Source of the DNA: Rhodospirillaceae bacterium
GTDB lineage: Bacteria; Pseudomonadota; Alphaproteobacteria; Rhodospirillales; Rhodospirillaceae
NCBI GenBank assembly: GCA_045564915.1
Contig: JBJLGL010000014.1
Coordinates: forward strand, 7,691-71,690
Direction: 5' to 3'
Length of the DNA: 64,000 nucleotides
Both the position numbers and the translations under genes were made by a program. Below, in pieces: positions 26,305-46,993 of this stretch. The notes beneath the pieces are model-generated. The model made no database searches. It was not told the origin of the DNA and was given only the letters and a program-made list of their open reading frames with translations. Within the stretch, counting starts at the first letter, position 1. Each line of letters begins with the position of its first letter.

Positions 26305-26562
26305 TCAGCTTACTGGATCGACGGATACAAAAGTACGCCCCTTAGCGCCCTTTTTAAAACTTACTTTGCCATCGGCTCGAGCGAAGATCGTGTAGTCGCG
26401 CCCCAAACCAACGTTTTCACCCGGATGCCATTTTGTTCCACATTGACGAACAATAATATTACCAGCGATAACTGCTTCACCGCCGAACTTCTTAACACCT
26501 AAGCGCTTGCCAGCAGAATCACGCCCATTGCGAGAACTGCCGCCTGATTTCTTATGCGCCAT
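26305..26562 (-). CDS. rpmA: 50S ribosomal protein L27
   Basis: 85 aa, [16 protein letters not shown]... Confidence 0.95.
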
Positions 26563-26577
26563 TTTCCATATCTCCTA

Positions 26578-27024
26578 TCAGCTTTCCTCGGCAGAGACTT
26601 TTTCAGGTCTTGCCACTTCAGCTTCCTTCGCAGTCGCCTTTTTAGCAGTCGCCTTTTTAGCAGTCGCCTTTTTAGCAGTCGCCTTTTTGGCAGTCGCCTT
26701 TTTGGCAGTCGCCTCTGGCTTTTTGACAGGATCAATATCTGTAATTTGAATGACGGTCAAATCCTGCCGATGACCAGCTGTCCTTTTGTAGTCCTTGCGA
26801 CGTTTCTTCTTGAAGACAACAATCTTATCGCCGCGCGACTGTTCAACAATTCTGCCCTTAACACTGGCTCCGGCAACATTAGGTGTCCCAGCCTTGTCGC
26901 CCACCATGAGCACCTCATCAAAGGTAACGGATGCACCAGAAACTCCGGCAACTCGTTCGACGGTTATGACGTCATCCTTTGTTACGCGGTACTGTTTGCC
27001 GCCTGTCTTTATGACTGCGTACAT
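26578..27024 (-). CDS. rplU: 50S ribosomal protein L21 with a repetitive Ala/Lys/Thr C-terminal extension
   Basis: The canonical start [14 protein letters not shown] is at 27024; the track ORF extends to 27153. The C-terminus is KKPE(ATAKK)5[19 protein letters not shown]. Confidence 0.9.
26630..26716. repeat. 15-bp tandem repeat, about 6 units (gcagtcgccttttta/g), inside the rplU 3' end
   Basis: Units start at 26630, 26645, 26660, 26675, 26690 and 26705. The first five are near-identical, differing only by a/g. Confidence 0.9.
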
Positions 27025-27239
27025 GATCGACCTTCCGAGAAACGAAAACAGCGGGACCACGCCCGCTCGATTTGGCGGAAATATACGCACCCAACCCTCT
27101 GAGTCAACGGTTTGGGCTCTAATCTGCAGTATTCTTAGCGCTATACGTGCCAAATCCTGCCAAAAAAAGTAATTTAGCCTAATTGAAGCATAAAACAGCT
27201 TACTGTAGTGTCCCTCTCCCCTTCAATCGATGACCTTGC

Positions 27240-27329
27240 GGAGAGGTGCCGGAGTGGTCGAACGGGGCGGTCTCGAAAACCGTTGCGCGCGCGAGTGTGC
27301 CGTGGGTTCGAATCCCACCCTCTCCGCCA
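27240..27329 (+). tRNA. tRNA-Ser (anticodon CGA), canonical copy
   Basis: GGAGAGG acceptor stem, anticodon loop CUCGAAA, long variable arm GCGCGC-GCGA-GTGTGC, T arm GTGGG-TTCGAAT-CCCAC, discriminator G, encoded CCA. Confidence 0.9.
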
Positions 27330-27601
27330 TTTACCCGGAATAAGTTCTTTTTATCAATAGGTTATAATATGCCCTTGTCTGCATGGGCGCTAGCTTTGCC
27401 ACTGCCAGGCGTTTTGGTTTCCTTATAAATACAGGCGAAATGCAAGCGAAGCAGGTGAAGCAAGCGTATCCCATATGGGGGAGTTGGGACAGTGGTACAT
27501 CCAGCCGCAGCAGTTAGTGCAGGCGACGAAGAGAAATCATGTGATACAAATACCGGTGGCCGTTAGCATGTCGTAAACATTGGATTGTAGAAGGTGAGAC
27601 C

Positions 27602-28306
27602 GTGAGCGAACTCAATTACGATGATATTGTCCGCATTCTTGATCAAAAGGGATTCACTGTTAGTCCGAAAGCCGCGGTGCGGGATTATGATAAATATCTG
27701 GATCAGAGCGAGTTTCGCTACATTCTTTGGCTTGACCGTATCTTCCAGAAAATTCAGCGTGTTCCTGGTCATATTGTTGAAATCGGTGTTGCACGCGGGC
27801 GAAATGCCCTCATCTTTGGTCACCTCATCAAGATGAATGGCGAAGATAGCATCAGGAATTACTATGGCTTTGATACCTTCGAAGGATACACCGAAGAAGA
27901 TTTACGCAGGAGCCCTCACCTATCTGCTGATGAATGGAAACAAACTACCTTTGATTTCGTCAGGGACCGTATCCATCTACAAGGTTTGAGCAATTCCTGC
28001 CATCTCTTTAAGGGCGACATTAAGGAGGTTGCACAAGATTTTATCAATTCTAAGCAGGCAAAATTCAACCCGGGAAAAATGAAGGTGGCATTACTCTATA
28101 TTGATTGTAACGCTTATTTACCGGCAAAGTTTTCCATGGATTTTTTCAAAGACTACATGTCACCGGGAGGCATTGTTTGTATTGACGAGAAATTACAAGG
28201 TGGAGAAATAGAAGCGTTAATGGAATTTTGCAGTGAGAACGGTTTAATCGCGGAAAAAGACCCGGGTCCATTCGGCATGCCAGCCTATACCGTTTTCAGG
28301 CCGTAA
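27602..28306 (+). CDS. TylF/MycF-like SAM-dependent O-methyltransferase
   Basis: 234 aa with a GTG start. Contains GHIVEIGVARGRNA, YGFDTFEGY and LLYIDCNAY, resembling the macrocin O-methyltransferase family. Confidence 0.65.
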   Translation: MSELNYDDIVRILDQKGFTVSPKAAVRDYDKYLDQSEFRYILWLDRIFQKIQRVPGHIVEIGVARGRNALIFGHLIKMNGEDSIRNYYGFDTFEGYTEEDLRRSPHLSADEWKQTTFDFVRDRIHLQGLSNSCHLFKGDIKEVAQDFINSKQAKFNPGKMKVALLYIDCNAYLPAKFSMDFFKDYMSPGGIVCIDEKLQGGEIEALMEFCSENGLIAEKDPGPFGMPAYTVFRP

Positions 28307-28357
28307 AAGTGATTAATCCGTATTAGCGCCTTTTGCCATTTTAGCATGCCTAGACAC

Positions 28358-28709
28358 TCACTGCGGCTCTGAAAGATATAGCGTTTTTGTGAGAAGTGCT
28401 TGATCATGCTTGACCATATTTTCCATTATACGCGGTATGATCGTTGCAGCCTGCCATCCACATATCTGTTCAATGAGGTTTGGTTTGAAAACCAAGAATG
28501 GCCTTACCTCAACTTTTTCGCCATCAAAGTAATCGCGCCAATCTAATCCGACAGCTTCAAACGCCACATCGAGAAGGTCCTTGAGAAACGTGGCTTTGCC
28601 GGATGAAGTAATAAAAGCTTCATTGAGGCCCATGTCGGCCATCATGGCCAGTAGCTCCGGTGGTCAAAACTGTTTCTAGTTTACCGAGATTAGAATCAGT
28701 ATCTGTCAT
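28358..28709 (-). pseudogene. Gmd-like NDP-sugar 4,6-dehydratase/epimerase remnant with a large internal deletion
   Basis: The ATG at 28709 overlaps the upstream stop (ATGA) and encodes MTDTDSNLGKLETVLTTGATGHDG, then a stop at 28622-28620. A shifted frame (28645-28358) encodes only the C-terminal ~90 aa (...AFEAVGLDWRDY...CGWQA...MVKHD). Confidence 0.6.
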
Positions 28710-29974
28710 CCCGTAACAAGAGTAAATTCTGGCAGGGGAAACAATAGCGTTCCGCCCCCATCCAAGAAGGATCGTTCTCGTCGAATAATCTCGTCACGAA
28801 AATGCCAAGGGAACACCACAAATATATCCGGACCCATGGCGCGGCCTTTAGCCTCAGATACGATGGGAATGTTGGTGCCCGGTGTGCGGCAACCGAATTT
28901 TCTCGGGTCCCTCTCGGCAATAGCTGGCATGAGGTCAGGCGTTATACTACAATATTGCAGAAGTACGTTTCCCTTCGTCGACGCGCCGTAGCCCAAAACC
29001 ATCCGACCATCCGCATTAGCTTTGAGAATATAGTTGCGAAACCTCTCTCTGTGACTAATAACCCGTTCGCAAAACTGTGCCCATGTATTGGTGTTTTCTA
29101 GCCCCATTTGATTCTCTAAATCTAACAATCTGTTAAGAGCTACACTGTTAGGCCGGTAATCAGAGTCATCTTGGGCAAAGAGAACAGAAAAGCTGCCACC
29201 ATTAACTGAGTTTCTGCGTGTATCTATAGCTTTCAATCCAACTTTCTTGCCAAGATCCATCAGTATTTTGAGTGTGAGGTATGTGACATGCTCATGGCAG
29301 ATGGAATCGTAGCAAAGCTGGTCAAACATAGCCCCAGCGTGGCTTTGTTCTGTGAACCAAACGCCATCATTTGCCAAAAGGCTCTGGACGTCAGTCATAA
29401 AATCCGACAAGGCCTCGATGTCGTAAAGCATCGCTACTGACGTTATAGCTTTGAATTGTACGCCTGGCCTGACACGCTTAACCGCTTCGGTTGAGAAAAA
29501 GTCTACTTCAAGTGCGGCTTCAGATACATACCGATCACGATATTGCTCTGCAGATGGGTCTATGCCCGTGAGCAACAAGTCTTGATTCTTAAAATTCGAG
29601 AGAAGCGTGCCATCATTGCTGCCTATATCGAGAATAGCGTCACCGGGGCGGAGGCGGGCCCACCCGGATACATACCCGGCAATATCGGCTAGGTGACTGC
29701 GCATGGTTGCCGTGATAGCCGAAGCGTAGCCGTATGTTTCGCCATACATCTCTGATGGTGCGAAACTTCGAGAAAGTTGTACGAGGCCACAACCTTTATT
29801 TTTATCGCCAGCTTCACATATGACCAATCCCACACAACCCGTTGAGGGATCTGGTTCTCCGGATGCCGGGAAACGTCCACTTAGTGCTTGGTACCCCAAG
29901 TCCAAGATGGGACGCAGAACCTGACTACCGCAGGCACGACAATTCAGGACGGGTTCGTCAACTATACTAGTCAC
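28706..29974 (-). CDS. NDP-hexose C-methyltransferase-type enzyme (zinc-ribbon N-domain, class I MTase, C-MT C-terminal domain)
   Basis: 422 aa. Has N-terminal CRACGS...LDLGYQALSGRF...CGLVQL and a central DIGSNDG SAM motif. The architecture resembles TylCIII/EryBIII-type enzymes. Confidence 0.7.
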   Translation of the reverse strand: MTSIVDEPVLNCRACGSQVLRPILDLGYQALSGRFPASGEPDPSTGCVGLVICEAGDKNKGCGLVQLSRSFAPSEMYGETYGYASAITATMRSHLADIAGYVSGWARLRPGDAILDIGSNDGTLLSNFKNQDLLLTGIDPSAEQYRDRYVSEAALEVDFFSTEAVKRVRPGVQFKAITSVAMLYDIEALSDFMTDVQSLLANDGVWFTEQSHAGAMFDQLCYDSICHEHVTYLTLKILMDLGKKVGLKAIDTRRNSVNGGSFSVLFAQDDSDYRPNSVALNRLLDLENQMGLENTNTWAQFCERVISHRERFRNYILKANADGRMVLGYGASTKGNVLLQYCSITPDLMPAIAERDPRKFGCRTPGTNIPIVSEAKGRAMGPDIFVVFPWHFRDEIIRRERSFLDGGGTLLFPLPEFTLVTG

Positions 29975-30006
29975 GCAACCGAACTTTCCATGTTTTCACC
30001 TTGTAC

Positions 30007-30816
30007 TTACTCTGAATTGGTCAATGCTCTTGCAAGGTCGACAACCTCTGCCCGCACAAAATCATCAAAAAAATTTGGCGGGCGATCAAAACAATCCGCT
30101 AGAGAGAGATCCTCATTGCGCACATAGAAGCGATTAAGGCCATCATAGTATGCGAAAGTATAATTGGCTTCCAACAAAATAAACTCCCATTGCTCCCAAT
30201 TGGGTCGATCAGTCTCTGGATAGGTGGCTTCAGCAAGCACAATTCTCGGCCGATGACGTTGCCAGTCACCGCCTACAATTACGTCATACTCAGCACCTTC
30301 GACATCTATTTTTAGAAAATCAATTGTCCTTGATGCGTACTCGTCCAAAAGAGAAGCTAAAGTCCGAGTAGGTACCTCGCACTCCCGAATTTCCAGCCCT
30401 CTCTTTTTATAAGAGGCCGCCAATTCAGCAAGAGCCGTTGTACGGGAAGTATTTGGGAGCGAATAGATTTTGGTGTCTCCGTCTTTCTGGCCGATAGCAA
30501 AACACAAATTGGTGTCTTTCGGTCGCAACTGATTAAAAAGTTCAATATTTTTTTCGTCCGGATCGATGTTCACACCCGACCAACCGCGCAATTGAAAGTG
30601 CTGAGTTACAGAATTCTTCACTGGGTGAAAAGCACCAATGTCGACAAAGAAACCGTTTGTTTGATCAGGAAAAGCGCGGCGCAAAAGTACATCTTCATAA
30701 TTCTGGGCATAGGAAACCATAGCGCCGTCATTCACTCTTGCTATCACCATGGATGCAAGGTTATAGGCCGACGAACGCTGAGAATTGTCCGGTAAACCGC
30801 TCATAATTATAACCAC
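30007..30816 (-). CDS. FkbM-family methyltransferase
   Basis: 269 aa with FVDIGAFHPV and IDFLKIDVEGAEYDVI. Confidence 0.8.
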   Translation of the reverse strand: MVIIMSGLPDNSQRSSAYNLASMVIARVNDGAMVSYAQNYEDVLLRRAFPDQTNGFFVDIGAFHPVKNSVTQHFQLRGWSGVNIDPDEKNIELFNQLRPKDTNLCFAIGQKDGDTKIYSLPNTSRTTALAELAASYKKRGLEIRECEVPTRTLASLLDEYASRTIDFLKIDVEGAEYDVIVGGDWQRHRPRIVLAEATYPETDRPNWEQWEFILLEANYTFAYYDGLNRFYVRNEDLSLADCFDRPPNFFDDFVRAEVVDLARALTNSE

Positions 30817-31122
30817 TCCGCGACGCTCATCAATTTACTACAACGTCCAGATTCTTAGAAAAGGGGTAAACTGGCGCGTATTGTGCTCTCATTCTTTGTT
30901 TCAAAGACAAAAATCTCTGTCCCTCATCTATTCTACGTCAAATGGCAATATTGACGATACCGCAAACTCACATGGCCCCTTGATTAAAATACTTTGTGAC
31001 GCCACTTGTTGATGACCTAGATTAGCACCTATCCCAATTGTTTAGTATTTGCGAGGCATGAGGACCTTTATATTTTTTTTGTCTGCAGAGATTTTTACGA
31101 CCTCTAGGACTATAATATTCGA

Positions 31123-32586
31123 CTAAGATTTTGGGAAAAAATTTGCCGAAAAAAGATGATAATAAATTGTGGGATTATCTTGAGACAGCTCCTCACCCAT
31201 CATACTTGCAAACTCTGGGAGCGTGTTATTAAGCTGCATGACAGTCTCAGACCAATTTCCGATAGAGAGGCGTTTTTCTGTCTCGGCAAAAAGGCCTGTT
31301 AAACGAGCGCGTAATTTTAAATCAAGTTCATGGCCAAGAATCTCATCCTTCATTTCCAAAACGTTCTCAGCATTACTCGAGAGCAAGATAAACGAAGCTC
31401 TTAAAACTTTAAGGATAAGTGGGTCTAGGTTGTCATCTTGCTCAGCAATGATTTCCCATTTCTTTTGCGGATCATTTTCTGAGAAGAACTTTTCTAAACG
31501 CTTGAGACTGCTATCCAATGACGAACTCAATTCTCCCTTTTCACACGCCTGCACAATTGACTCTATTGATTTTCCGAATCCGAACGATATGAGATGCCCC
31601 ATAGCGTCTAAACAGTATTCTGAAACACCCTGTTTTGGTTCTGCCGCACTTGCGGTGACTTGGTAATGGATGGCATTTGCTGGCCTACTCGGAAGTTTTC
31701 GTGGAACTACAGATTGAACATCAAAATGGTGTAAATTGAAGTCCGAAAAACATTTTGCTCCACTGATTCCAGGAACACTTTGTCTGTTTACAAAATAGAA
31801 AATTCCAGTCGCAGTAAGGTGCTTAAGAATCCATTGCGAATACGCCTGCGCAGTTTTTAGAGGCATTTCGCCCATGCTAGCCACGTTAATGACAAGATCG
31901 AAGTCCCGCCTCTCTATCTTGTCGATAATGTCTGGCACACAAAAATTTAAGTCGCGGTCACATGACAGTGTGTCCGGCTCATCGGCGAATACTACGCCAT
32001 GAGTCTTACCCGGCATGCAAAGCGGAAGATACATGGAAGCAAGATATAGATTCTCAGGCAGGTCAATGACGGTATAGGAGCTTATATCAAGGTATTCGTG
32101 CAAAGCGTACGCTGTCGAGCCGAATCCAGCGCCGATCTCGCACACTTTCAGATCCGATGTCTTGGCAGAGAAAGCATTAAATCTCTCTGCTATGGTGTAC
32201 GCAGAGACAACATTCTTTGCAAAGTTTGCGCTGAAAAGGTTCCCTTGGTATGAAAACACTTCAGGTGTTCCCAAAGTTGGCTCAGTAACCGTTTTAAAAA
32301 TATCTGCGGGAACATCATACAACATCAGCAGCCTGAGCATGGACTCAAAAAAGCGCTTTCTTTCTTGATACCCTGCTGTTGAATCCCCCAGGCCTACAGC
32401 ACCACCGACCGACGAATTTCTAAAAAGGTGAAATTTTTCCTCGGACATAAAGTTTGGTCTGTTGCTGAACAAACCCTGCCATAACTCAGATACACTGGCA
32501 TACACGTTATCGGTAGCACCTTTAGAAAGGAGCTCAAACTCTTCCCGACGTCGTTTAGATAGATTAGCAATGTGCTTAAAATCCAT
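31123..32586 (-). CDS. class I SAM-dependent methyltransferase with a ~170-aa helical C-terminal extension (sugar O-methyltransferase-like)
   Basis: 487 aa with VCEIGAGFGSTAYAL and TVIDLPEN. GGAG lies 10 nt upstream of the ATG. Confidence 0.55.
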   Translation of the reverse strand: MDFKHIANLSKRRREEFELLSKGATDNVYASVSELWQGLFSNRPNFMSEEKFHLFRNSSVGGAVGLGDSTAGYQERKRFFESMLRLLMLYDVPADIFKTVTEPTLGTPEVFSYQGNLFSANFAKNVVSAYTIAERFNAFSAKTSDLKVCEIGAGFGSTAYALHEYLDISSYTVIDLPENLYLASMYLPLCMPGKTHGVVFADEPDTLSCDRDLNFCVPDIIDKIERRDFDLVINVASMGEMPLKTAQAYSQWILKHLTATGIFYFVNRQSVPGISGAKCFSDFNLHHFDVQSVVPRKLPSRPANAIHYQVTASAAEPKQGVSEYCLDAMGHLISFGFGKSIESIVQACEKGELSSSLDSSLKRLEKFFSENDPQKKWEIIAEQDDNLDPLILKVLRASFILLSSNAENVLEMKDEILGHELDLKLRARLTGLFAETEKRLSIGNWSETVMQLNNTLPEFASMMGEELSQDNPTIYYHLFSANFFPKS

Positions 32587-33026
32587 ACGTCAGGGCTCTC
32601 CTATTAAATCAAAATCATGAGGCATAGCTAAAAACTGCCCCACCTTATGCATGCTAATTATTAGATCACGCACTACCATTACGCCGATTATGCGTAGTAA
32701 TTCAATGCGTATAACTAGATTTTTAGGGCCATATCTGGTGAGTATAGTTGCGTCGCGAACCGTGAATACCTCAGAAGATACGCTGGCGGTTATGACGAGA
32801 ATCCCAACTCCTTATCCGGTCTGCTAATCAAACAATATACCATGCTACTGCATAGCCAGCCATTACATGCGGTAAAACAATGTTGTTTAGGGATGAATAA
32901 GCGGGGATTGCTATGACTTCCGGATCAGCGATAATCCCGAGGAAATAGATTTTTGAGTAATACTACCAGCAGGGCAATACCTACAGTCAAGAATGACCTA
33001 AGTTGGTTCAATTGCTGACTGGAGTA

Positions 33027-35024
33027 TTACAAACGCTCGACCTCTGAGACAATATCCTCGCCTGCCTGCTTAGGGATTGTCGGCGCACGCTCGGTTTCAT
33101 AAAAATAAGAACCCGTGCGGTTCCCAAACCATACGACCTCGCGGCACCAGTCGTCGAGCTTCTGCCATTGGTCTTTAGCTCTTAGAACCCGAACTCTTTC
33201 TGATGCTCGCCCACCATTCAGCTCTACTTTAACAACACTCTCCCATAGATCTAGAACCTGCGTTTTCAGAGGAACCACTAAGTCCTCTCCCACAAATGGA
33301 ACCTTTAGAAGAACTTTATTAAGATGGATAGCTTCGTCGATAAGCAACTCATCCATCTCGATGTTTGACGCAGCAACATACTCCAAAAGAAGTCGTTTTG
33401 ATTCATCGTAAAACTGATCGATTCTGCCATCCGCGACAATTCTCATCACCATAATTTCATCAGGTTTCCAAAATGAATTTAAAAAGCGCTCCTCATGGTA
33501 ATATTCGCCACTACCAGACTGTATTGCTTGAGCATGCCCCCGTAAAAAATCACCCACTTCAGCAATAAGCGGATAATCAGACGCATCTGCATCGAGTATA
33601 TATTCTATAATAGACCGGTATTCGCCTTCACCCGCCTGATTAACCATTACCATCGGTATTTGTAGCATTTTATCAAAGTGGAGAAAGTCAGCCATCCAGG
33701 CGAAGACTCTGGTCTTTCGCCACTCGGCCGGAGGCATAGTCTTAGTCGAGACAACCAAATATTGATATTCTTGTACATCATCTTCGTGTTCAACATTTTC
33801 TCCATATCCGTTGACGACCGGTATTCTGACGGTTTCCATCTTATGGGTTTTCTGATACCTGGGGTCACCCATTTCGGCATTCGGCAATATACTAAGGTTG
33901 TTGAACCGAATTCTATTGTGCTGGCCGTTGGAGATCAGATCATCCACACTACTAGCGAAAGTATCGTATGTATCGCCCGGAAGCCCCAATATCAGCTCTG
34001 AATACGTTTCGATATTGTGGTGGGTAAAGCGTTCCTGAAGTGTCTGATAACTATCGAGGCTAATGTTTGCACGTCTTATGATCTCAAGGGTTTTGGGGTT
34101 CGTGCTTTGCATCGATAAAGACACTCCCTTACTCAGACCCGCATCAGAAAGTATCTTCTGCACTTCAAAGGAACGACCGGTAGCATTCTTGGTGTTTTGA
34201 ACAGAGAAGATAACCGGATAACCGGATCGACGTTTCTGTTCCGCCATTTGTTCAGCGATGGTTTCGTCCCTGGGCAGAATGCCAAAATTGGCATCACAGC
34301 AGTAGATGAACGGTATACGGTTATGTGAAAACCACTCGATTTCCTCTAGAAGCCGCTCCGTTCCAAAACGAGCCACCTTCGATGCCGTATTGGAGCCCCA
34401 GTCGCAAAACGTACAACTGAAAGGACATCCGCGGTTAGTTTCCCATAATGCCGTCCATTTCTCGTCTGGATTCTCCTCGAACAATTTGTCAAAGACACCC
34501 GTTAAGTACGGCGAAGGAATATCATCTAAATTACGCAACCTTGGAGCGCCCAATGTAGTCACGACCTCACCATTGATACGGTATGAAACACTTGAAATAT
34601 TGGTCCAGTCGTTTGATGGATAACTTTCAAGCAGATCAAGAAATACTCTTTCTCCCTCGGCGTGCACAACAACATCAATCATGGCATTGTCCGCTAAGAA
34701 CTCATCTGAGCGAGAAGGGACTTGAGGTCCGCCGACAATAATCAATGTATCCGGGCTTTGCTCTTTAACCCTCCTTGCAACCTCTAGAGAAATTCCCTCA
34801 TTCCAAGTATACAAGCTAATAGCTACTATATCTGCCTGCGCTAACTTACTAACGATATCTCTAACAGGTTCTCGTTTGAAGATTGGTGTCAAAAATTCAT
34901 AGGACTCTGGTCGGGATGAATATGTGACAGCATAGGATTGCAGCATCCCTACGGAGTAAGGAACCCAACTTTGACCTGCAAAGCCCCCGTTGATTTGAAC
35001 CAAGCCTATCTTAGTCTGTTCCAT
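33027..35024 (-). CDS. B12-binding-domain radical SAM protein (class B, probable methylase)
   Basis: 665 aa. The N-terminal cobalamin-binding-like region is ADIVAISLYTWN...LIIVGGPQ, and the CX3CX2C cluster is NRGCPFSCTFCDWG. Confidence 0.8.
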   Translation of the reverse strand: MEQTKIGLVQINGGFAGQSWVPYSVGMLQSYAVTYSSRPESYEFLTPIFKREPVRDIVSKLAQADIVAISLYTWNEGISLEVARRVKEQSPDTLIIVGGPQVPSRSDEFLADNAMIDVVVHAEGERVFLDLLESYPSNDWTNISSVSYRINGEVVTTLGAPRLRNLDDIPSPYLTGVFDKLFEENPDEKWTALWETNRGCPFSCTFCDWGSNTASKVARFGTERLLEEIEWFSHNRIPFIYCCDANFGILPRDETIAEQMAEQKRRSGYPVIFSVQNTKNATGRSFEVQKILSDAGLSKGVSLSMQSTNPKTLEIIRRANISLDSYQTLQERFTHHNIETYSELILGLPGDTYDTFASSVDDLISNGQHNRIRFNNLSILPNAEMGDPRYQKTHKMETVRIPVVNGYGENVEHEDDVQEYQYLVVSTKTMPPAEWRKTRVFAWMADFLHFDKMLQIPMVMVNQAGEGEYRSIIEYILDADASDYPLIAEVGDFLRGHAQAIQSGSGEYYHEERFLNSFWKPDEIMVMRIVADGRIDQFYDESKRLLLEYVAASNIEMDELLIDEAIHLNKVLLKVPFVGEDLVVPLKTQVLDLWESVVKVELNGGRASERVRVLRAKDQWQKLDDWCREVVWFGNRTGSYFYETERAPTIPKQAGEDIVSEVERL

Positions 35025-35095
35025 ATTCTATTCCGTAAGTCGCCATGACCGGGAACTCCAGTAACCAACTTTCTGTAAAAGCAATGAGATCAGCC

Positions 35096-36199
35096 CTAAT
35101 ACTTTACCTTTTCGGTAACATCATATTTCAGAATCTTGTCCACACATTCGCTCAAAAAAAATTGTTCTTCAGTTCCAACTGTCTTGTAAAGACGGGCACG
35201 CTCTTGAATGTGCGGCAGTTGAGCGCCGTCATGCCCTAAAGTCCCTAACAATCTTCCTCCAACAATCCGTGCAAACCCCTCCTTTGCAACTGCTAACGCA
35301 TCCTGAATAGCCACGCCGTCAACATCAGATATTATTCGGGCAATATGATTCACGAACAAATTAGCATCATATTGCCAATGGGGCCTCAATATTGCCTCAG
35401 TTATCGATCTATCCGTATCATCTAAGATCCCATCTCTTATATTACCTTCGTGTTTCTGCCTAACAGCCTGCAGGTCATTTATCAGTCGAATCTTACCCTT
35501 TAATACTGGCGTAAACATCCATAAATACTCAGCCGAAAAATGAGGGAAATTTATCTTGTAAGCATCTGGTGGCACACACTCAATGTATCGGTCTGCCCTT
35601 GTCATCAGATACATCGTATTACAAAAATGTCTAATGAAGTGAAAAAGCCTATTCGTTGCTGTTGCTTCCATGTTCTCAAAAGTTGCATGCAACATCCCAG
35701 TATCTGGCACCACCCCGTTAACATAATCCCTTTTGTTGAGCTGATCATTAAGCCAAAGAAATACATGGTCCCCTAGAACACCCCCAACGTCTTTATCTTT
35801 ATCCATGATAATGCTGGCTTTTTCTAAGGTAATCGGTATCGGAATATCATCATCACACGTCATTGTGACGTACTTTGTCTCCACCATCGTAGCGGCCACA
35901 GCAATTGCCTGATTTAAACTTATAGCCAGCGGCATACCCGGGGACTTTGGCACTGAGATATGTTCGACATGATAAGATGGCTCCAAGTTCTGAATCAGAT
36001 CATTAGTGATGCCAAACTCTCTACGTTCACTGGAATCAGACAAAAACAATTGGCCGCCAAAATCTAACTCATCCAGCCCGCCGATCATTCTCGCCAAAAA
36101 ATGAGATCTTCGGTAGGTTGGAACAATGATTGTAAAATCTTTACCGTACATCATTAATTTCCTCGCCCCCTCAATCAGAAGGCTGTTTATACGTTCCAT
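35096..36199 (-). CDS. glycosyltransferase family 2-like protein (tentative)
   Basis: 367 aa with TIIVPTYRRSHFL near the N-terminus and an acidic TCDDD motif. The rest is unrecognised. Confidence 0.4.
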   Translation of the reverse strand: MERINSLLIEGARKLMMYGKDFTIIVPTYRRSHFLARMIGGLDELDFGGQLFLSDSSERREFGITNDLIQNLEPSYHVEHISVPKSPGMPLAISLNQAIAVAATMVETKYVTMTCDDDIPIPITLEKASIIMDKDKDVGGVLGDHVFLWLNDQLNKRDYVNGVVPDTGMLHATFENMEATATNRLFHFIRHFCNTMYLMTRADRYIECVPPDAYKINFPHFSAEYLWMFTPVLKGKIRLINDLQAVRQKHEGNIRDGILDDTDRSITEAILRPHWQYDANLFVNHIARIISDVDGVAIQDALAVAKEGFARIVGGRLLGTLGHDGAQLPHIQERARLYKTVGTEEQFFLSECVDKILKYDVTEKVKY

Positions 36200-36240
36200 T
36201 GTTTAATAATGGGACAACGCATAATGTCAGTATAACAAAA

Positions 36241-36295
36241 GGTTAAATGATCCGTTAGCGCAATTCTGCGTAAAACTCATAAAGACATTTGGCCA
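36241..36295. repeat. direct repeat copy A1 (30 nt identical, then ~18/25 identical, to 42815-42869)
   Basis: ggttaaatgatccgttagcgcaattctgcg is identical in both copies. It spans the stop and last codons of a minus-strand 36-aa ORF (36255-36365, ...AKCLYEFYAELR*). Confidence 0.85.
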
Positions 36296-36395
36296 CACTA
36301 TCTGGATCATTGTCGGGCTGGTAATCAGCACCCCCGACAATACATGGCTTGGCATCTGGTCTCATCTCACCGGCTCTTTCAATCGATGAATAAGC

Positions 36396-36485
36396 GGAGA
36401 GGTGCCTGAGTGGTCGAACGGGGCGGTCTCGAAAACCGTTGTGCGCGCGAGCGTACCGTGGGTTCGAATGCCACCCTCTCCACCA
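36396..36485 (+). tRNA. tRNA-Ser (anticodon CGA), second divergent copy, possibly impaired
   Basis: Shows 84/90 identity to 27240-27329 and has the same anticodon loop. The variable arm is GTGCGC-GCGA-GCGTAC. The T arm GTGGG-TTCGAAT-GCCAC has a G:G mismatch at the loop-closing pair. The discriminator is A. Confidence 0.65.
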
Positions 36486-36493
36486 TCTATGGC

Positions 36494-37543
36494 CTATAGG
36501 GATGCTGACGAAAGTATGACCCTCTCCATCCCCTCGCGCTCTACCTTGACTCCAAAGCTCTGTTCTAGCGCATTAAATAGTGTATCCACATTACCGACCT
36601 TTAAGAATCCTCCAAACCGCAATTCTTTAAGCGCCGGATCTTGTATTACGATTTGGATGTCGGTGTAACGGCTCACTTCAGAGACTACTGCCGCCAGAGG
36701 TTCTCCGGCAAAGGCAAGCAGACCCTGCCGCCAGGCCAGCTTCCGATTCATTTCAGGCGGAGAAATGGTGGTCACCTTCTCGATTGTATCACTGACGATG
36801 GCATTCTCCCCTGCGGTCAAGCCAACCAAAAGGTCATTGAAGGTTTCACCGCCCACGTTTGCTTCGGGGCGAGGATTCTCAGGCAACACATATAATCTGA
36901 CGTCCCCTTCGGTGACAGTGACTTCAATATTTTTTTCCCGCCGGTATACACTGAAAGCTGTGCCAACTGCTGTTATAACCCGATTATCAACATATACGGA
37001 AAATGGACGCTTCTTTTCGACCGCGACAGTGAAATGCACCTCACCCCGCTGAAGCCTGACGTTGCGAGACTCTTTAGTCAGCACTACTTCAATTTCACTA
37101 TCAGTGTTCAATTGAAGCTCTGACCCATCTGTCAGCAAAACTGTTTTTTGAGTGCCGATAACGGTACGGTGAATCTGTGGCACATCAGTCCGCGGCAAGA
37201 AGAATGGCTGCCCAAGGATCAAGACCACCGCCACAGCTGCTGCACTCCCCAACACTGCGATGCGGTGACGAACCTCAAATCCAAAGCGTTCAAGCAAAGT
37301 CGGCTGAGCCATTGAGTTTGCTTTTCTGCCCTTCAAGGAAGCTAACATGTCAGAGTTGGCCCAAGTCTGAGCAGCCCGGTCGGCTGCTTCCTGATGTTGC
37401 CGACTCTGGGTGCACCAAGCTTCAAATGCTGCCCGGTCCCGATCAGACGCGCTATCGACATCCAAACGGACGATCCAAGTCGCCGCTTCAGCGTCTAGCA
37501 CTTCCGTGTCGGGGAAGGTCACGATCTTGTCATCGTCACTCAT
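36494..37543 (-). CDS. FecR-family anti-sigma factor / transmembrane sensor
   Basis: 349 aa with an N-terminal anti-sigma region, one TM (IAVLGSAAAVAVVLILG) and a periplasmic FecR-like LLTDGSELQLNTDSE. Confidence 0.8.
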   Translation of the reverse strand: MSDDDKIVTFPDTEVLDAEAATWIVRLDVDSASDRDRAAFEAWCTQSRQHQEAADRAAQTWANSDMLASLKGRKANSMAQPTLLERFGFEVRHRIAVLGSAAAVAVVLILGQPFFLPRTDVPQIHRTVIGTQKTVLLTDGSELQLNTDSEIEVVLTKESRNVRLQRGEVHFTVAVEKKRPFSVYVDNRVITAVGTAFSVYRREKNIEVTVTEGDVRLYVLPENPRPEANVGGETFNDLLVGLTAGENAIVSDTIEKVTTISPPEMNRKLAWRQGLLAFAGEPLAAVVSEVSRYTDIQIVIQDPALKELRFGGFLKVGNVDTLFNALEQSFGVKVEREGMERVILSSASL

Positions 37544-38192
37544 CTTTAGTACTTCGTCTCAGGTTGGAGGTTCCGGTAATATATAAACTTGTAGTTTTCT
37601 CTAGAGCAAAGCGCCCTTTATTGCGTTTCGGATCACCAAAGTCTGCCGGGTTGTAACCCTTTCGCCGTAATGTATCCATACACTTCAACAAACCCGTGGC
37701 GACATGTTTCTCAATGGTACTTGGGGAAAGTTTCATACGCTTGGCTATTTCTTTGTAAGACAGACCATCTACCTTTCTAAGTTCGAAAGCCCTGCGGCAT
37801 TGCGGCGGCAAGGTCATAACTACCTCACTCATGATGACAAGGCGTTGCCGATCGGATACTTGTTCATCGACGGCAACCTGGCCGCTGTCAGTTAAGACCT
37901 CCGGACTAACAAAATCCTCTATATAGTCCGTCGTCGCCAAAGACTTTTTTGCCAGAAAATTGAGCGCAAGGTTTTTAGCTACTCTAAAGAGATATGCTTT
38001 AGGCGCTCGGATCGGACGTTCGGATTCCGCGACGAACGCGTGCAAAAAAGTCTCCTGAGTTAAGTCTTCTATGTCCTGCTGACGTGGCAGGTAGCGTGCC
38101 AGCAAACGGCGGAGAGCCGCTTCGTTTTCCACAAAAACCTTGTGAATCAGAGACATTCCTAACTCCGTTCTTCCTGCTATCTTGCTTCTCAA
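37536..38192 (-). CDS. ECF (sigma-70 family) RNA polymerase sigma factor (start may be the Met at 38156)
   Basis: Region 2 is DIEDLTQETFLHAF and region 4 is LSYKEIAKRMKLSPSTIEKHV. It overlaps fecR by 8 nt. Confidence 0.85.
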   Translation of the reverse strand: MRSKIAGRTELGMSLIHKVFVENEAALRRLLARYLPRQQDIEDLTQETFLHAFVAESERPIRAPKAYLFRVAKNLALNFLAKKSLATTDYIEDFVSPEVLTDSGQVAVDEQVSDRQRLVIMSEVVMTLPPQCRRAFELRKVDGLSYKEIAKRMKLSPSTIEKHVATGLLKCMDTLRRKGYNPADFGDPKRNKGRFALEKTTSLYITGTSNLRRSTKDE

Positions 38193-38343
38193 ATAGCGTC
38201 ACAACATTATACTTACCGTTATGCGATGGTGGAAAACAAGAAAATCGGCAAATTTTATGGCGGATTCTCTTATGTTGTCGGTCTTATACAGCGAGGCTGG
38301 TGAAAATAGAGTTCCGCTGTTGTTGATTACCTTGCCGACGAGA

Positions 38344-41070
38344 ATGACGCCGCGTGCCTTTGTGAGGCGAAACGCGGTATGGGGGTTATTTTTTGCTCTA
38401 ATGCTATCAGTCAGCACTGTCAATTCGGCGCTGGCAAAATCAGACCGGCATTATGATCTCGAAATCCGGGATCGCCGGTTAGGCGATGCCGCGCAAAATC
38501 TTTCGCGGCAGACCGGACTTGAGCTGCTGTTTCCCTTCGAGTTGGCAGACACTGTTGGCATAAACCTGGTCGTGGGTCGTTATACGGTGCCGGAAGCACT
38601 AGACGTAATGCTTAGTGACACGGGTTACTCAGGCAGCCTGACTACTGACGGAGTTATAACGATTTTTCGCCGCGCCACGAATGATGCAGGTCAACCGGAG
38701 GTAAATATGTCTGAATATCAAAAACCAAGCCAATCTCTTCTTGGCCGCATGCTGACGTCCGTCGCCGCGGTGTTAACAGCGACAGCAGCAACGCCGGACT
38801 CACCGGTCCGTGCTCAAGAGGTTGCACTCGAGGAAATTGTGGTCACCACCCGTAAGCGAGAAGAAAGCCTTCAGGATGTGCCGCTTTCTATTACAGCGCT
38901 GACCCTCGAAGATATTACCCGACGTAATATCACTGACCTTGAAAGTGTGGCCCGTCAAACCGCCGGCCTGATTTATGAGGACCTTTCGACCACTTTTAAT
39001 GGCGTTCTGACCATCCGCGGTCTGGCCCAAGCGGAAGTCCAAAACCGGGTGCAAAACGTGGCCGTATTCGTCGACGGTGTGTATATCCCGCGCAATTATT
39101 CCGTCGATATGGGAATCAGCGATTTTGAACGAATTGAAGTGGTTAAAGGCCCTCAAAGCGCACTCTATGGCCAAAATGCATTCGCCGGCGCCTTGAACTA
39201 CGTCACACTTAAGCCCTCTTTGACCGACTTTGAGGGGTCAGCTGAACTGACATTGGGGACGGCAGGACGTTTGGATTACAAGTTCGCAGCGGGAGGGCCA
39301 ATTGTCGAAGATGTCTTAGCCGTTCGCGGATTCTACGGCTCGACCGAATTCAACGGCAACCGGCGCAACAATTTTCCCAATATCCCCAAAAGCCTTGAGA
39401 AGACCGGTGGCTATGATCGCGAAGCCATAAATCTGAGTGCCATTTTCACACCGGCGGAAAACCTAGAAATCGACCTTCTTTACAAACATGTCGAGCGCTC
39501 AGAAGAAGTGCGGCCAGGGTATACGGTCTCGGGCAACAGACCACAGATTCTGCTCAATTGCGGCCCGGCAACACCAAACACAAATGGCAACCCGGCGTTT
39601 TATTGCGGCGAAATACCTAATTCTGCAAATCCATTTCAATCGCCGCTATCCCGTCGGCTGCCGGGTGATCTTTTCGCACCTCAGCCGGGCAGTGATACCG
39701 AATCAGACCTTTATCGGGCGAGTCTGGGTTATCAGTTCGATGATGCTTGGCGCTTTGACTACACCTATGGCCGCGTCGAAGCTAAAGGCCAGGAGATTGC
39801 CCACATCACCGATGATCCTGCCGGTTTCGGTGTTTCCACATCACAAAAGGAAGGTGGCATCAACGACTTCGAGAGCCACGAAGCACGGGTTTCATATACG
39901 CCTGCAGACAGCCCTTTCTCCGCCGAACTTGGGTTTTATAACGCAGACCAACAAGATGACTTCGTATTCCATCTTGGCCTGGTGTTCGGATTCCTTGGCC
40001 CTGTTGTTATCGAAGACACAACCTCGGGTTTTCTCGACACCACCGGATTCTTTATTCCGTTGCGCAATTTCGTGGTTAATGAAACTACTGACGCATTGTT
40101 TGGAAGCCTGAGCTATGACTTCGCTGATGATCGTGCGACCCTCACTGTTGAGGCCCGCAATTCATGGGTCGACGTCAATTTCTTCGATAACGTCGCTCGA
40201 ATTGCTGAACAGACCGACAATTATAACAACTTCACTCCACGTATCACTTTGGAATACGACGCAACGGAAGACTCCATGCTGTATGCGTCAGTTGCCAAGG
40301 GCGTCAAGGCGGGCGGCTTCAACGGTTTCGTCGCCGGGCCCGTTAATCTCCTTGCTGCGGAACAAACCTTTAGTGAGGAAAAAAACTGGACCTATGAGAT
40401 AGGTAGCAAAAATACATTTGCTGACGGGCGGTTTGCGTTCAATGCAGCCGCCTACTATGTCGATTGGTCATCTGCACAGGTCCAATCTCTGCCCAGTAAT
40501 TTCGATACAGTCAACCTCCAGGCAGGTAGTGTGGCCCCAACCATTTTTCTCAATATCGGCGATGTCAAAAGTTGGGGTATTGAACTTGATGGAACCTATG
40601 TCATCAATGAGAACTTCAGCATTAATTTCTCGGCCACCACATCTGATCCGAAATATAAGAGCGGCACGAAAGTGGGCCAGTTTGTGGGTATTTGCGATGG
40701 CATTTTCTGCCCAGCGGACGGGGATGTGAGCGGCAACAGTTTGCCACGTCAATCTAAAACTCAAGCCACGTTTGGCGCTCAATACGAAACACCCATCCTC
40801 AGTGACTATGAGTTTTATGCCCGCGCTGACCTAACCTACCAATCCAAACGCATCACAGACGCCATGAATTTCGCCTGGGCCCCAGAGCGTTACAATCTAA
40901 GCGCTAGTGCGGGGATCATTGGAGATAATTGGTCGCTTACCGCCTGGGGGGATAATCTTACAGCTGAAAAATATGCGACAAGTTCATTGTTCATCATACA
41001 GTTCAGCCGTTATGGGCCAGCTGTAAATGACGGTCCGGCCGGTGGCCTAACGTTGAAAGTCAATATCTAA
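38344..41070 (+). CDS. TonB-dependent receptor with an N-terminal signalling (STN) extension
   Basis: I prefer the Met at 38344 (MTPRAFVRRNAVWGLFFALMLSVSTVNSALA). The STN-like region is YDLEIRDRRLGDAAQNLSRQTGLELLF and the plug starts EEIVVTTRKREESLQDVPLSITAL. The track ORF starts at 38221. Confidence 0.85.
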   Translation: MTPRAFVRRNAVWGLFFALMLSVSTVNSALAKSDRHYDLEIRDRRLGDAAQNLSRQTGLELLFPFELADTVGINLVVGRYTVPEALDVMLSDTGYSGSLTTDGVITIFRRATNDAGQPEVNMSEYQKPSQSLLGRMLTSVAAVLTATAATPDSPVRAQEVALEEIVVTTRKREESLQDVPLSITALTLEDITRRNITDLESVARQTAGLIYEDLSTTFNGVLTIRGLAQAEVQNRVQNVAVFVDGVYIPRNYSVDMGISDFERIEVVKGPQSALYGQNAFAGALNYVTLKPSLTDFEGSAELTLGTAGRLDYKFAAGGPIVEDVLAVRGFYGSTEFNGNRRNNFPNIPKSLEKTGGYDREAINLSAIFTPAENLEIDLLYKHVERSEEVRPGYTVSGNRPQILLNCGPATPNTNGNPAFYCGEIPNSANPFQSPLSRRLPGDLFAPQPGSDTESDLYRASLGYQFDDAWRFDYTYGRVEAKGQEIAHITDDPAGFGVSTSQKEGGINDFESHEARVSYTPADSPFSAELGFYNADQQDDFVFHLGLVFGFLGPVVIEDTTSGFLDTTGFFIPLRNFVVNETTDALFGSLSYDFADDRATLTVEARNSWVDVNFFDNVARIAEQTDNYNNFTPRITLEYDATEDSMLYASVAKGVKAGGFNGFVAGPVNLLAAEQTFSEEKNWTYEIGSKNTFADGRFAFNAAAYYVDWSSAQVQSLPSNFDTVNLQAGSVAPTIFLNIGDVKSWGIELDGTYVINENFSINFSATTSDPKYKSGTKVGQFVGICDGIFCPADGDVSGNSLPRQSKTQATFGAQYETPILSDYEFYARADLTYQSKRITDAMNFAWAPERYNLSASAGIIGDNWSLTAWGDNLTAEKYATSSLFIIQFSRYGPAVNDGPAGGLTLKVNI

Positions 41071-41150
41071 GCAAGCAACTAAGTGCGTATTTAGAGGAAT
41101 CCGTGGGACTGCTGTATGCTGTGGCATTTGACTCAATAGGCGAGGTTTAG

Positions 41151-41918
41151 ATGGAAACTCGTACGGTGCCGCAGCGGTTGCGCGCTCAGATTGACTTGCC
41201 AACACCCGTTGCTATTTGGGTCATCAGTGCACATGCAATCGCCCAGTTCACCCCGTTGGTGTTACTGTGGGTTGTCTACACCAATTGGGAGTTTGTCGCC
41301 GCCAACACATATGCACCGGGGCTCTTCTACCTCGCCGTCGCTATAATGATGGCGACGTCAGCCTTTGAAATTGCCCAGAACACCTTTGACAATTGGTATC
41401 TCGAGCCAGGTATGGGTAGTACGGATCAGCCTGCGCTAGCAGATTTTGTGTTCTATCTTTTTTCTTCTACCAGCTTGGTAGTGTTGATCGCAGCTTGCAT
41501 GGGGCACCTGTGGTGGCTGGTCTTTGGTAGCGCAGCTTTGGTTGGCGTTTTTGCCTTTCTCTATTTGACCGGACGCGCGCCTTTTGCCGTTCTCGGAATT
41601 CTTGGACTGGTCTCAACTATTATTTTGTTTCTAGCCTTCGGCAACCCCATCATATTCTTGCAGTTCGTCACTGTGCAGCTCACGCTTTACTTTTTCACAC
41701 TGCTTCTCAAAACAAAGGCGCAATCCATGCACGGGTTCACAGCCTTCACCAGCACACTGGGATTGTGGGTGCTGGCCTGGGCCATCATCGGTAGCGCCGC
41801 CGGTCAACCTAAGAGCTGGGTTTTTGTACTCATACTTGCGGCCGGTATTGGACTGGCAGCGCTCTTATTGAAAGCGAGACTAGAGAAACTCACGGCAACA
41901 TCGCATCGTTCCGTATAG
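41151..41918 (+). CDS. integral membrane protein, about 8 predicted TM helices, unknown family
   Basis: 255 aa that is almost entirely hydrophobic. Its stop lies 1 nt before the next start. Confidence 0.5.
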   Translation: METRTVPQRLRAQIDLPTPVAIWVISAHAIAQFTPLVLLWVVYTNWEFVAANTYAPGLFYLAVAIMMATSAFEIAQNTFDNWYLEPGMGSTDQPALADFVFYLFSSTSLVVLIAACMGHLWWLVFGSAALVGVFAFLYLTGRAPFAVLGILGLVSTIILFLAFGNPIIFLQFVTVQLTLYFFTLLLKTKAQSMHGFTAFTSTLGLWVLAWAIIGSAAGQPKSWVFVLILAAGIGLAALLLKARLEKLTATSHRSV

Positions 41919-41919
41919 G

Positions 41920-42807
41920 ATGACCGTGAGCGACGATATGGACGGCAAGGTTTGTCTGATTACCGGGGCTGCTAGCGGTCTCGGCCGCATCGCCGCCAGA
42001 GAGCTGGCTAAGCTTGGCTCCCAGGTCATTCTAGTGGATATCGAAATCGAGGAAGGACGGCAAGCCCGGGATGAAATCGTCTCGCTTACTGGAAACAACG
42101 ATGTCGAATTTCAAGGCTGCGATATTTCATCGTTTGCTCAAGTGCGCCGATTGGCAGATGATGTGATGGCAAAATACCCGAGACTTGACGTTCTCATCAA
42201 TAACGCCGGCCTGACTCAGCCATTATACACTTTGAGTGATGATGGTTTTGAAACCCACATGGCGACGTGCCATTTAGGTCATTTTCTACTGACTCAGTTG
42301 TTGCTCGATAGACTCAAAAGCAGTGCGCTAGCCCGCATCATTCAGATTTCTTCCGATGCCCATAAGGCCGGACCAGGTTTAGATTGGAATGATATGAACT
42401 GCGAAAAGGTTTGGAAGGGCCGCAAAGCGTCAAAGCGTGGCGCGTTTGTCGCGTATCAGCGCGCTAAGCTGGCCATGGTCTTATACACCTATGAACTGGC
42501 TAAGCGTACAGAAGGTACGGGCGTAACGGTTAATGTGGTGTCACCAGGATATTTTGTTAGGACCAACGTTTACCGTCATATGCCCCGTTTTTTTAAGATG
42601 TGGATATGGTTGATCCGCCCTTTGCTTGCCGACCCCGAGAAAAGTGCCCAAACATATGTCTACCTTGCGACGTCACCCGAAGTGGAAGGCGTCAGCGGCA
42701 AATACTGGGAGTACTGTGCCCTCAAAGAAAGCTCTGACCACTCTCATGATGATGCTGAAATGCAGCGGCTTTGGGCGTGGAGCGAAAACGCAACGGGATT
42801 GGCGTAA
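41920..42807 (+). CDS. short-chain dehydrogenase/reductase (retinol-dehydrogenase-like)
   Basis: 295 aa with TGAASGLG, NNAG and YQRAK (YxxxK). Confidence 0.85.
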   Translation: MTVSDDMDGKVCLITGAASGLGRIAARELAKLGSQVILVDIEIEEGRQARDEIVSLTGNNDVEFQGCDISSFAQVRRLADDVMAKYPRLDVLINNAGLTQPLYTLSDDGFETHMATCHLGHFLLTQLLLDRLKSSALARIIQISSDAHKAGPGLDWNDMNCEKVWKGRKASKRGAFVAYQRAKLAMVLYTYELAKRTEGTGVTVNVVSPGYFVRTNVYRHMPRFFKMWIWLIRPLLADPEKSAQTYVYLATSPEVEGVSGKYWEYCALKESSDHSHDDAEMQRLWAWSENATGLA

Positions 42808-42814
42808 GTCTAAG

Positions 42815-42869
42815 GGTTAAATGATCCGTTAGCGCAATTCTGCGCAGAACTCTTGCAGACCATTGGCCA
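42815..42869. repeat. direct repeat copy A2
   Basis: Matches 36241-36295. The minus strand keeps only MANGLQEFCAELR* of the homologous ORF. Confidence 0.85.
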
Positions 42870-42922
42870 TTGTGAGACTTATTTATAGGGACAAGTTTGA
42901 GGACAAAAAACAAAAATGTTTC

Positions 42923-45449: not shown

Positions 45450-45554
45450 TTTTCGTGCCTTCTTCTCTTCTTCTAATAACCTTTATTAGTTTCTTACCGA
45501 GATTGACCTAGAATATCATCGCTCACAGCTACTAGCGGAAGTCTGGCAATAAAA

Positions 45555-46978: not shown

Positions 46979-46993
46979 TGATCTACTCCCTAC

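Follow-up and report, generated by a model that had tools for sequence, protein, structure and literature searches.

A decaying tRNA-Ser(CGA) duplicate and a staggered second repeat at a gene-insertion hotspot of a Rhodospirillaceae bacterium

A 64,000-nucleotide stretch of contig JBJLGL010000014.1 from a Rhodospirillaceae bacterium (the window, within which all positions are counted) contains two same-strand tRNA-Ser(CGA) genes that bracket a 9.1-kb cassette of six intact sugar-modification genes and one epimerase remnant. The tRNA-Ser(CGA) gene beside rplU is a conserved gene-insertion hotspot in this marine alphaproteobacterial lineage, and accessory DNA does begin at its 3′ end. The first tRNA copy is the ancestral, resident gene and is under selection, whereas the second, on the evidence of its sequence, is probably a redundant and decaying duplicate, that is, a pseudogene. 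The cassette is a lineage-specific insertion whose source lies either within the clade or in the glycan cluster of the cell itself, and it is still under selection. The locus is an ordinary flexible genomic island except for its scar, which is unusual and consists of the whole decaying tRNA duplicate and a staggered second repeat, and we lean towards an integrase-independent, homology-driven addition as the way in which the cassette came to lie there.

The duplicated tRNA gene and its flanks

Two plus-strand tRNA-Ser(CGA) genes are the only tRNAs that ARAGORN detects in the window, and Rfam agrees on both. Copy 1 lies at 27240–27329 and copy 2 at 36396–36485, and direct reading of the two sequences gives 84 of 90 identical positions and six differences. 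An earlier note, made from the letters of the window, had reported this same-strand pair and this identity, on which ARAGORN, Rfam, sequence reading and blastn now agree. The repeat also includes flanking DNA, since blastn aligns 27222–27333 (repeat A, copy 1 with its duplicated flank) to 36378–36489 at 90% identity over 112 nt (E = 7e-38), both on the plus strand, and alignment to outgroups extends the homology upstream of copy 2 leftwards to about −22 (36374). Repeat A′ is delimited accordingly at 36374–36489 (plus strand) and comprises copy 2, about 22 nt upstream and about 4 nt downstream. The 18-nt upstream motif TTCAATCGATGANNNNGC matches the window at 27222 and 36378 only, against a chance expectation of 0.07; its duplication had been noticed earlier, and the homology reaches slightly further than those 18 nt. 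The A/A′ repeat is hence a full 90-nt gene with about 22 nt of upstream sequence, not a short 3′ piece of a tRNA.

Copy 1 is divergent from the core gene rplU, which encodes bL21 (26578–27024, minus strand; Pfam Ribosomal_L21p), and is preceded by the upstream block CTGTAGTGTCC (27203–27213, plus strand), a putative promoter element whose form in relatives is CTGTAGGGTCC and which, by alignment, precedes copy 1 only. A simple sigma-70 promoter scan found nothing, and a terminator scan around both copies was likewise uninformative. At the other end, the fecR open reading frame (ORF) ends at 36494, and its stop codon is 8 nt past the end of copy 2, as previously read.

A hotspot at the 3′ end of the tRNA

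The relatives compared are loci with a bL21 80–86% identical to that of the window (L085, L086, L087, L089, L218, L219, and L220); the names of bL21 homologues suggest a marine Rhodospirillales-like alphaproteobacterium. Each of them has a single tRNA-Ser(CGA), divergent from rplU like copy 1. Five relatives, from three species-level groups, are counted in this single-copy state, and the block CTGTAGGGTCC is common to them and kept before copy 1, so that copy 1 can be taken as ancestral in place. Protein-level synteny with L085, L086, and L089 extends from 16.5 kb to 27.3 kb, in the gene order nadD-proA-proB-obg-rpmA-rplU with rplU last, and ends at the 3′ end of the tRNA; no downstream gene is shared. 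The same edge appears between L218 and L219, two strains of one relative with the same bL21. Their sequences are 100% identical for 10.7 kb, an identity that ends with the final base of the tRNA and gives way to unrelated DNA. Both comparisons uphold the proposal, made in the earlier note, that accessory DNA begins at the 3′ end of this gene. Moreover, L086 differs from L085 by one extra gene at that very end. The site is fixed and its gene content varies, the conserved boundary being identified on the left side only, and no mobility-associated protein was found in the ORFs tested across the window.

The sequence at the right of the tRNA 3′ end in L219 encodes a 415-aa P4-type integrase (Arm-DNA-bind_3, Phage_int_M, and Phage_integrase domains), AlpA, a DUF3631 protein, and an IS3 transposase. 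Homologous integrases adjoin the same tRNA in L114, L187, and L212, and classical 3′-end tRNA repeats of 15–31 nt are found at this tRNA in L095, L139, and L212. Integrases therefore use tRNA-Ser(CGA) in this clade and leave short 3′ repeats, unlike the whole-gene repeat of the window, which bears out the view that a whole-gene duplicate without an integrase is atypical. Since the same tRNA of a relative hosts a classical integrase island, the hotspot appears to be used by integrase-dependent and integrase-independent routes alike.

Several smaller observations concern the same site. In the comparison of L218 with L219 (positions 1–9694), L218 has a PQQ-dehydrogenase and other genes where L219 has the integrase island, the attR of which lies beyond the 10 kb fetched. 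The difference between L085 (6358–6659) and L086 (8795–9694) is a single glyoxalase gene that directly follows the tRNA-Ser 3′ end and has no mobility gene near it. In addition, IMG/VR holds 12 predicted prophage contigs from other alphaproteobacteria (L221–L232) with a full tRNA-Ser(CGA) at the contig end or about 1 kb from it, a position consistent with prophages integrated beside this tRNA; their tRNAs keep C61 and G73 in 12 of 12 cases.

One conserved tRNA and one decaying tRNA

The sequence reconstructed as the ancestral tRNA is that of the tRNAs of L220 and of the metagenome loci L098 and L154, and it is three steps away from each copy of the window. The three private changes of copy 1 all fall in the stem of the variable arm, where a U-A pair has become C-G through compensatory changes and a G-C pair has become G-U, so that pairing is kept, and the gene retains G12, C61, and G73. 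The three private changes of copy 2 are G12U, C61G, and G73A, and they break the D and T stems. Conservation was counted in tRNA-Ser(CGA) genes from metagenomes and from the relatives: G12 is present in 118 of 118 homologues, the G53-C61 pair in 108 of 108 distinct sequences, and G73 in all but about two homologues, while the discriminator base of copy 2 is A73. Infernal scores the U12.C23 and G53.G61 pairs of copy 2 as negative non-canonical and gives this copy 42.5 Rfam bits, compared with 57.9 bits and zero bad pairs for copy 1, and the minimum-energy fold is a cloverleaf for copy 1 but not for copy 2. Copy 2 fails what a functional elongator tRNA-Ser requires in its D and T stems, in the G53-C61 pair, and in its discriminator base. 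The earlier description of both copies as complete holds for their length, but copy 2 is degenerate and pseudogene-like, with three changes at invariant or near-invariant positions.

These changes are also present in independent assemblies from other runs (L001, L002, and L216) and are, therefore, not sequencing errors. Moreover, copy 2 is without the conserved upstream block that copy 1 has. Its homology to the native upstream region ends about 22 nt before the gene, and the loss of the sequence beyond that point probably leaves it silent. In practical terms, it deserves annotation as a probable tRNA pseudogene.

Content and origin of the cassette

The cassette (module 1) opens beside copy 1 with a TylF/Methyltransf_24-type SAM-dependent methyltransferase gene (27602–28306, plus strand; Pfam), with 67% amino acid identity to a gene of L214 that has the opposite relative orientation. 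It is followed by the remnant of an NAD-dependent sugar epimerase/dehydratase, a pseudogene left as a 95-aa ORF (28358–28645, minus strand; tblastn 61% to the C-terminus of the L214 gene), which corresponds to the C-terminal 87 aa of a gene that is intact in L214 (334 aa). The remaining genes are on the minus strand and encode an NDP-hexose C-methyltransferase of the TylCIII type (28706–29974; Pfam Methyltransf_13/14; 79% identical to that of L214, both of 422 aa), an FkbM-family methyltransferase (30007–30816; Pfam, NCBIfam TIGR01444), a NanM-like putative sugar O-methyltransferase (31123–32586; NCBIfam TIGR04371, 82 bits with a cut-off of 44), a cobalamin-dependent radical-SAM methyltransferase (33027–35024; Pfam B12-binding and Radical_SAM), and a glycosyltransferase with a TIGR04440 domain (35096–36154; NCBIfam, 84.5 bits with a cut-off of 70). 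The nearest named model for the radical-SAM enzyme is the KedN5 family (NCBIfam NF033712), at 260 bits and below its cut-off of 700. The glycosyltransferase has 352 aa in the independent contigs L216 and L217, and its ORF can be extended to 36199. Six of these genes are the methyltransferase, radical-SAM, and glycosyltransferase genes to which the earlier note had limited the interval, but the epimerase remnant has to be added to them. Two C-methyltransferases, one of them the B12/radical-SAM enzyme, and two putative O-methyltransferases, TylF-like and NanM-like, are encoded, and the module probably decorates a surface glycan, as judged from its predicted enzymes. The cassette may determine strain-specific methylation of surface glycans, a trait relevant to recognition by phages and grazers in marine bacteria.

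For the radical-SAM protein, close homologues (82% and 83% identity) occur in L214 and L215, and the next best match is at 52%. In L214, the order glycosyltransferase, radical-SAM, NanM-like, FkbM, C-methyltransferase, epimerase, and TylF-like is colinear with the cassette at 61–82% amino acid identity, and these genes are embedded in a far larger cluster with NeuB, a CMP-sugar synthetase, a DHDPS-like enzyme, and further methyltransferases; L215 shares this gene set but in a shuffled order. No tRNA is present in the sequence fetched for L214 and L215, which extends 10 kb to each side of the radical-SAM gene. By its predicted gene content, the cassette corresponds to part of a larger nonulosonic-acid glycan cluster, which in two relatives lies elsewhere. 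Relative to L214, the TylF-like gene is inverted and the epimerase truncated, which on sequence comparison is read as a sign that the left end of the cassette has been rearranged internally.

The overall content of guanine and cytosine (GC) is 0.447 in the cassette, 0.483 in the left flank, and 0.506 in the second cargo, so that the cassette is mildly richer in AT than its flanks, as the earlier note had estimated by eye; the deficit comes from codon positions 1 and 2, however, and the GC content of third codon positions (GC3) is native, at 0.443 versus 0.439–0.458 in core genes. The codon-usage distance of the cassette (0.10–0.18) also falls inside the core range (0.07–0.24), and native GC3 and codon usage rule out an argument for foreign origin from base composition. 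Nonsynonymous divergence (dN) between the cassette genes and their L214 orthologues is 0.11–0.26, compared with 0.06–0.20 between core genes and those of genus-level relatives. The ratio of nonsynonymous to synonymous divergence (omega) is below 0.1 in the four intact cassette genes for which synonymous divergence (dS) was estimable, the C-methyltransferase and TylF-like genes giving no dS value. Native codon usage, core-like dN, and low omega together indicate a donor within the clade and genes that are still in use.

A staggered second repeat and a second module

A second direct repeat of 58 nt, B, is located between the start of the glycosyltransferase gene and copy 2 (36238–36295, plus strand), with its partner B′ (42812–42869, plus strand; blastn 86% over 58 nt) 5 nt after the stop of an SDR gene and 54 nt from the stop of the convergent SBP_bac_5 gene. 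Both contain an identical 30-nt core, GGTTAAATGATCCGTTAGCGCAATTCTGCG (36241–36270 in B), which is found twice against a chance expectation of 0. All eight mismatches between B and B′ fall in the right-hand 28 nt, and since every one lies outside the left part, the distribution suggests that the core is under constraint. The resulting layout, A ... B, 82 nt, A′ ... B′, is that of two modules composed of tRNA, cargo, and B, the cargos of which share no similarity by blastn. The 82-nt linker from B to copy 2 includes a hairpin (36309–36341), which is seen in the sequence and in the centroid fold. Its arms, ATTGTCGGG/CCCGACAAT, pair perfectly over 9 bp around a loop of 15 nt, and it has no T-run.

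Module 2 (36.5–42.8 kb) is a fecR / ECF-sigma / TonB-receptor uptake unit. Its cargo (36494–42807; Pfam, NCBIfam) comprises genes for FecR and an ECF sigma factor on the minus strand and for a TonB-dependent receptor, a 255-aa protein, and an SDR oxidoreductase on the plus strand; it has a GC3 of 0.53 and is not found at this position in the relatives.

Repeat B has no match in Rfam at E ≤ 1 and was not found in any relative locus fetched nor in IMG/VR, the last of which speaks against a phage or satellite sequence. Its resemblance to a dif/Xer site or an integron attC is weak and partial by eye, and both readings were rejected. An integron cassette array is also at odds with the absence of an integrase, with the lack of paired inverse-core/core sites in B (by eye), and with the presence of only two B copies that have multi-gene blocks between them. 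The 17-aa ORFs over both B copies (minus strand) probably arise by chance, their variable parts not being conserved, and a reading as a ribosomally synthesised and post-translationally modified peptide was set aside, the radical-SAM enzyme of the relatives lying in sugar clusters. No further tRNA fragments of at least 12 nt, such as would indicate the end of a third module, were found near B′.

Route of entry and rival explanations

An integrase-independent, homology-driven addition of module 1 at the tRNA hotspot seems somewhat the best-founded account of the locus. The incoming DNA would derive from the equivalent locus of a related strain and would bring its own whole tRNA-Ser gene and its own B. 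It could have entered as a circularised fragment through a single crossover within the tRNA, by a homologous crossover on one side and an illegitimate join on the other, some 22 nt ahead of the resident tRNA, or by unequal crossover, and all three routes would lead to the same product, namely two accessory modules in tandem behind the resident tRNA-Ser, each composed of tRNA-Ser, cargo, and the 58-nt repeat B, with module 1 at 27.3–36.3 kb. Copy 1, with its native upstream region, would then stay selected, whereas copy 2, cut off and redundant, would decay. What argues for homology is a repeat that takes in the leader and stops at about −22, an arbitrary point, a B that travels with cargo 1, native codon usage, and the lack of a recombinase; recombination by homology as the route is itself inferred. 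Two modules of equal architecture, with staggered B and B′, are moreover what would be expected if tRNA and B bound alternative cargos. A stronger form of this account, in which the segment from tRNA-Ser to B is a portable homology frame that lets strains add or swap glycan and nutrient-uptake cassettes by housekeeping recombination alone, is quite doubtful. The whole tRNA gene and the 30-nt core of B would in that case travel with each cargo, in DNA pieces of about 9 kb arriving, for example, by transformation or gene-transfer agents. Should it be true, redundant tRNA copies would be countable scars of past additions, and the locus would represent an integrase-free cassette system built on a tRNA gene.

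The earlier note had left the choice between a decayed island and homologous exchange between tRNA copies, and the evidence leans to the latter, integrase-independent exchange. A decayed integrase-mobilised island, whose attP would have carried a whole tRNA copy (for instance, after imprecise excision in an earlier host) and whose integrase and mobility genes were later deleted, leaving copy 1 as attL and copy 2 as attR, is less probable but deserves serious consideration. P4-type integrases of the clade are proven to use this tRNA as attB (L219, and also L114, L187, and L212), prophage contigs in IMG/VR abut it, degraded elements and residual tRNA pieces are documented in island arrays (bioRxiv 10.1101/2020.12.28.424599), and the cassette is itself internally decayed, with an epimerase stump and an inverted gene. 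However, no Phage_integrase or rve domain occurs in any ORF tested across the 64-kb window, and tblastn of the L219 integrase, AlpA, and a neighbouring protein against the window detected no remnant even at E ≤ 50 (best E = 0.66), so that the absence of an integrase noticed earlier is confirmed. In addition, integrase repeats at this tRNA in other genomes span 15–31 nt of the 3′ end and not the whole gene with its 5′ leader, codon usage is native, the cargo is without phage or conjugation genes, and the B/B′ repeat is left unexplained. A local tandem duplication of the segment from tRNA to B, produced by unequal exchange between sister chromosomes, after which a piece of the cell's own glycan cluster would have replaced the cargo of the first unit, is unlikely, even if it would yield the staggered A..B-A′..B′ layout and if native composition and genus-level divergence from the L214 and L215 clusters are compatible with an intragenomic origin. 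The two cargos are dissimilar throughout, only the tRNA (112 nt) and B (58 nt) being common, the linker past B is unrelated to the sequence past B′, and two or three events are needed, versus one or two under homology-driven addition. Very improbable, and largely refuted, is an old stable locus with two functional tRNA-Ser(CGA) genes and native intervening genes. It could draw on the native GC3 and codon usage of the cassette, on six intact genes, four of which, those with estimable dS, are under strong purifying selection, and on junctions that are reproduced in the sequencing runs of other samples. Against it, the five relatives examined are all single-copy with unrelated downstream genes, where the earlier note had reasoned that such a locus would show both copies and the same genes in every relative, and copy 2 has three changes at invariant or near-invariant positions, 15 Rfam bits less than copy 1, no cloverleaf, and no conserved upstream block.

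Several points weigh against homology-driven addition. No same-species genome with an empty site or a single module was found in the collections, where the species is rare and yielded fragments of one population only, and the insertion is read from genus-level relatives only, because the short-read contigs of the species break inside the tRNA. The alignment to relatives proposed in the earlier note did recover a single-tRNA site next to rplU, but in genus-level relatives, which have one tRNA and other genes; same-species contigs never cross the tRNA. Exact look-ups of the FecR, bL21, SBP, and radical-SAM proteins of the window returned short contigs only, and those that reach either tRNA break inside it; the 367-aa glycosyltransferase ORF and the SDR gave no match because the recorded gene calls use other start codons, a metagenome scan for the species-specific leader-plus-tRNA motif had no match, and a bL21 scan of GTDB gave, among the matches listed, distant genomes at ≤62% identity. 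Moreover, the 82-nt linker between B and copy 2 is unlike the sequence following B′, so that a simple allelic model needs an extra illegitimate join. The stretch 36494–46250 (fecR block, SBP_bac_5, PhyH, and phoB) has a GC3 of 0.48–0.59, versus 0.44–0.46 elsewhere in the window, and since it runs past B′ into SBP_bac_5 and PhyH, the right edge of the variable region is not fixed by B′. The conserved core of B may alternatively represent a functional site or a small repeat element, and an integrase could lie outside the 64-kb window or have since been deleted.

A further point is that the left junction of the cassette (27313–28662) is covered by no independent contig fetched. Together with the breaks inside the tRNA that the short-read contigs of the species show in all samples seen, this gap would suit an assembly artefact, in which the contig was mis-joined across the repeated tRNA. 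Such a mis-join is hardly credible, since contigs from different runs, at 99.4–100% identity to the window, link both copies to their own neighbours: L083 joins rplU, G12, and the variable arm of copy-1 type and ends at window position 27312, L216 joins the cassette, B, the linker, and the 5′ part of copy 2 with T12, and L001 and L002 join the 3′ part of copy 2 (G61 and A73) to fecR. Two contigs from metagenome assemblies of other samples, one of them labelled k127, stop inside copy 1 (L083 at 27312 and L084 at 27285), despite the longest exact repeat between the two copies being 34 nt; strain heterogeneity downstream of the tRNA, or low coverage, may account for these breaks.

Comparison with known systems

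Many tRNA-side hotspots of gene transfer have no recognisable mobile element, and their entry route is mostly inferred from statistics. In integrase-mobilised tRNA islands, the recombinase gene is inside the element, usually beside the tRNA, and the flanking repeat is a short 3′ part of the tRNA. The window has neither a recombinase gene nor a short 3′ repeat, nor the atypical composition of such islands. Its readable insertion scar, made of a whole tRNA with part of its leader, a staggered repeat, and a decaying duplicate beside a selected twin, speaks to the entry route.

Hotspots without mobile elements that are diversified by homologous recombination at conserved flanks have been described (Oliveira, Touchon, Cury and Rocha 2017, PMC5635113), as have flexible genomic islands in marine bacteria such as Alteromonas (PMC4898812). 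The present locus resembles both in its fixed tRNA-side site, in a content that varies among relatives, in the lack of an integrase or transposase, in its usual cargo of surface-glycan modification and TonB-dependent uptake, and in its native-like composition. However, it retains a whole duplicated tRNA, part of the leader, and a staggered second repeat, which point to an additive single-crossover or one-sided event, unlike the clean double crossover proposed for the hotspots of PMC5635113.

The likeness to P4-type islands, prophages, and the tycheposons of Prochlorococcus, as known from tRNA island arrays with remnants (bioRxiv 10.1101/2020.12.28.424599), resides in the target gene, which is the same in the P4-type island of L219, in direct tRNA repeats around the insert, and in tandem arrays with older modules pushed away from the tRNA. 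In contrast, the window is without integrase, excisionase, and replication genes, its repeat is a whole tRNA with about 22 nt upstream instead of a 15–31-nt 3′ piece, and its distal tRNA copy is mutated at invariant positions. With the nonulosonic-acid clusters of L214 and L215 (NeuB / CMP-sugar synthetase), the cassette has in common the TylCIII-type, FkbM, NanM-like, and B12-radical-SAM methyltransferases, in an order colinear with L214; it differs in having no NeuB, CMP-sugar synthetase, or aminotransferase, in an epimerase of 87 residues, in the inverted TylF-like gene, and in its place beside a tRNA.

Other features of the window

The C-terminal tail of bL21 is composed of about six ATAKK repeats (26578–26740, minus strand). 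A long antisense ORF with RLFSS repeats (26554–27102, plus strand) is the mirror of this tail and not a gene. Further downstream, 45555–53879 contains a complete phosphate-starvation cluster, with phoB, phoU, pstB, pstA, pstC, and genes for a periplasmic phosphate-binding protein, a histidine kinase (phoR-like), and a phosphate-selective porin O/P. It is followed by the gene of a 657-aa TPR and methyltransferase protein (54132–56105, plus strand), which has the lowest GC3 of the window (0.369) and may be another acquired gene.

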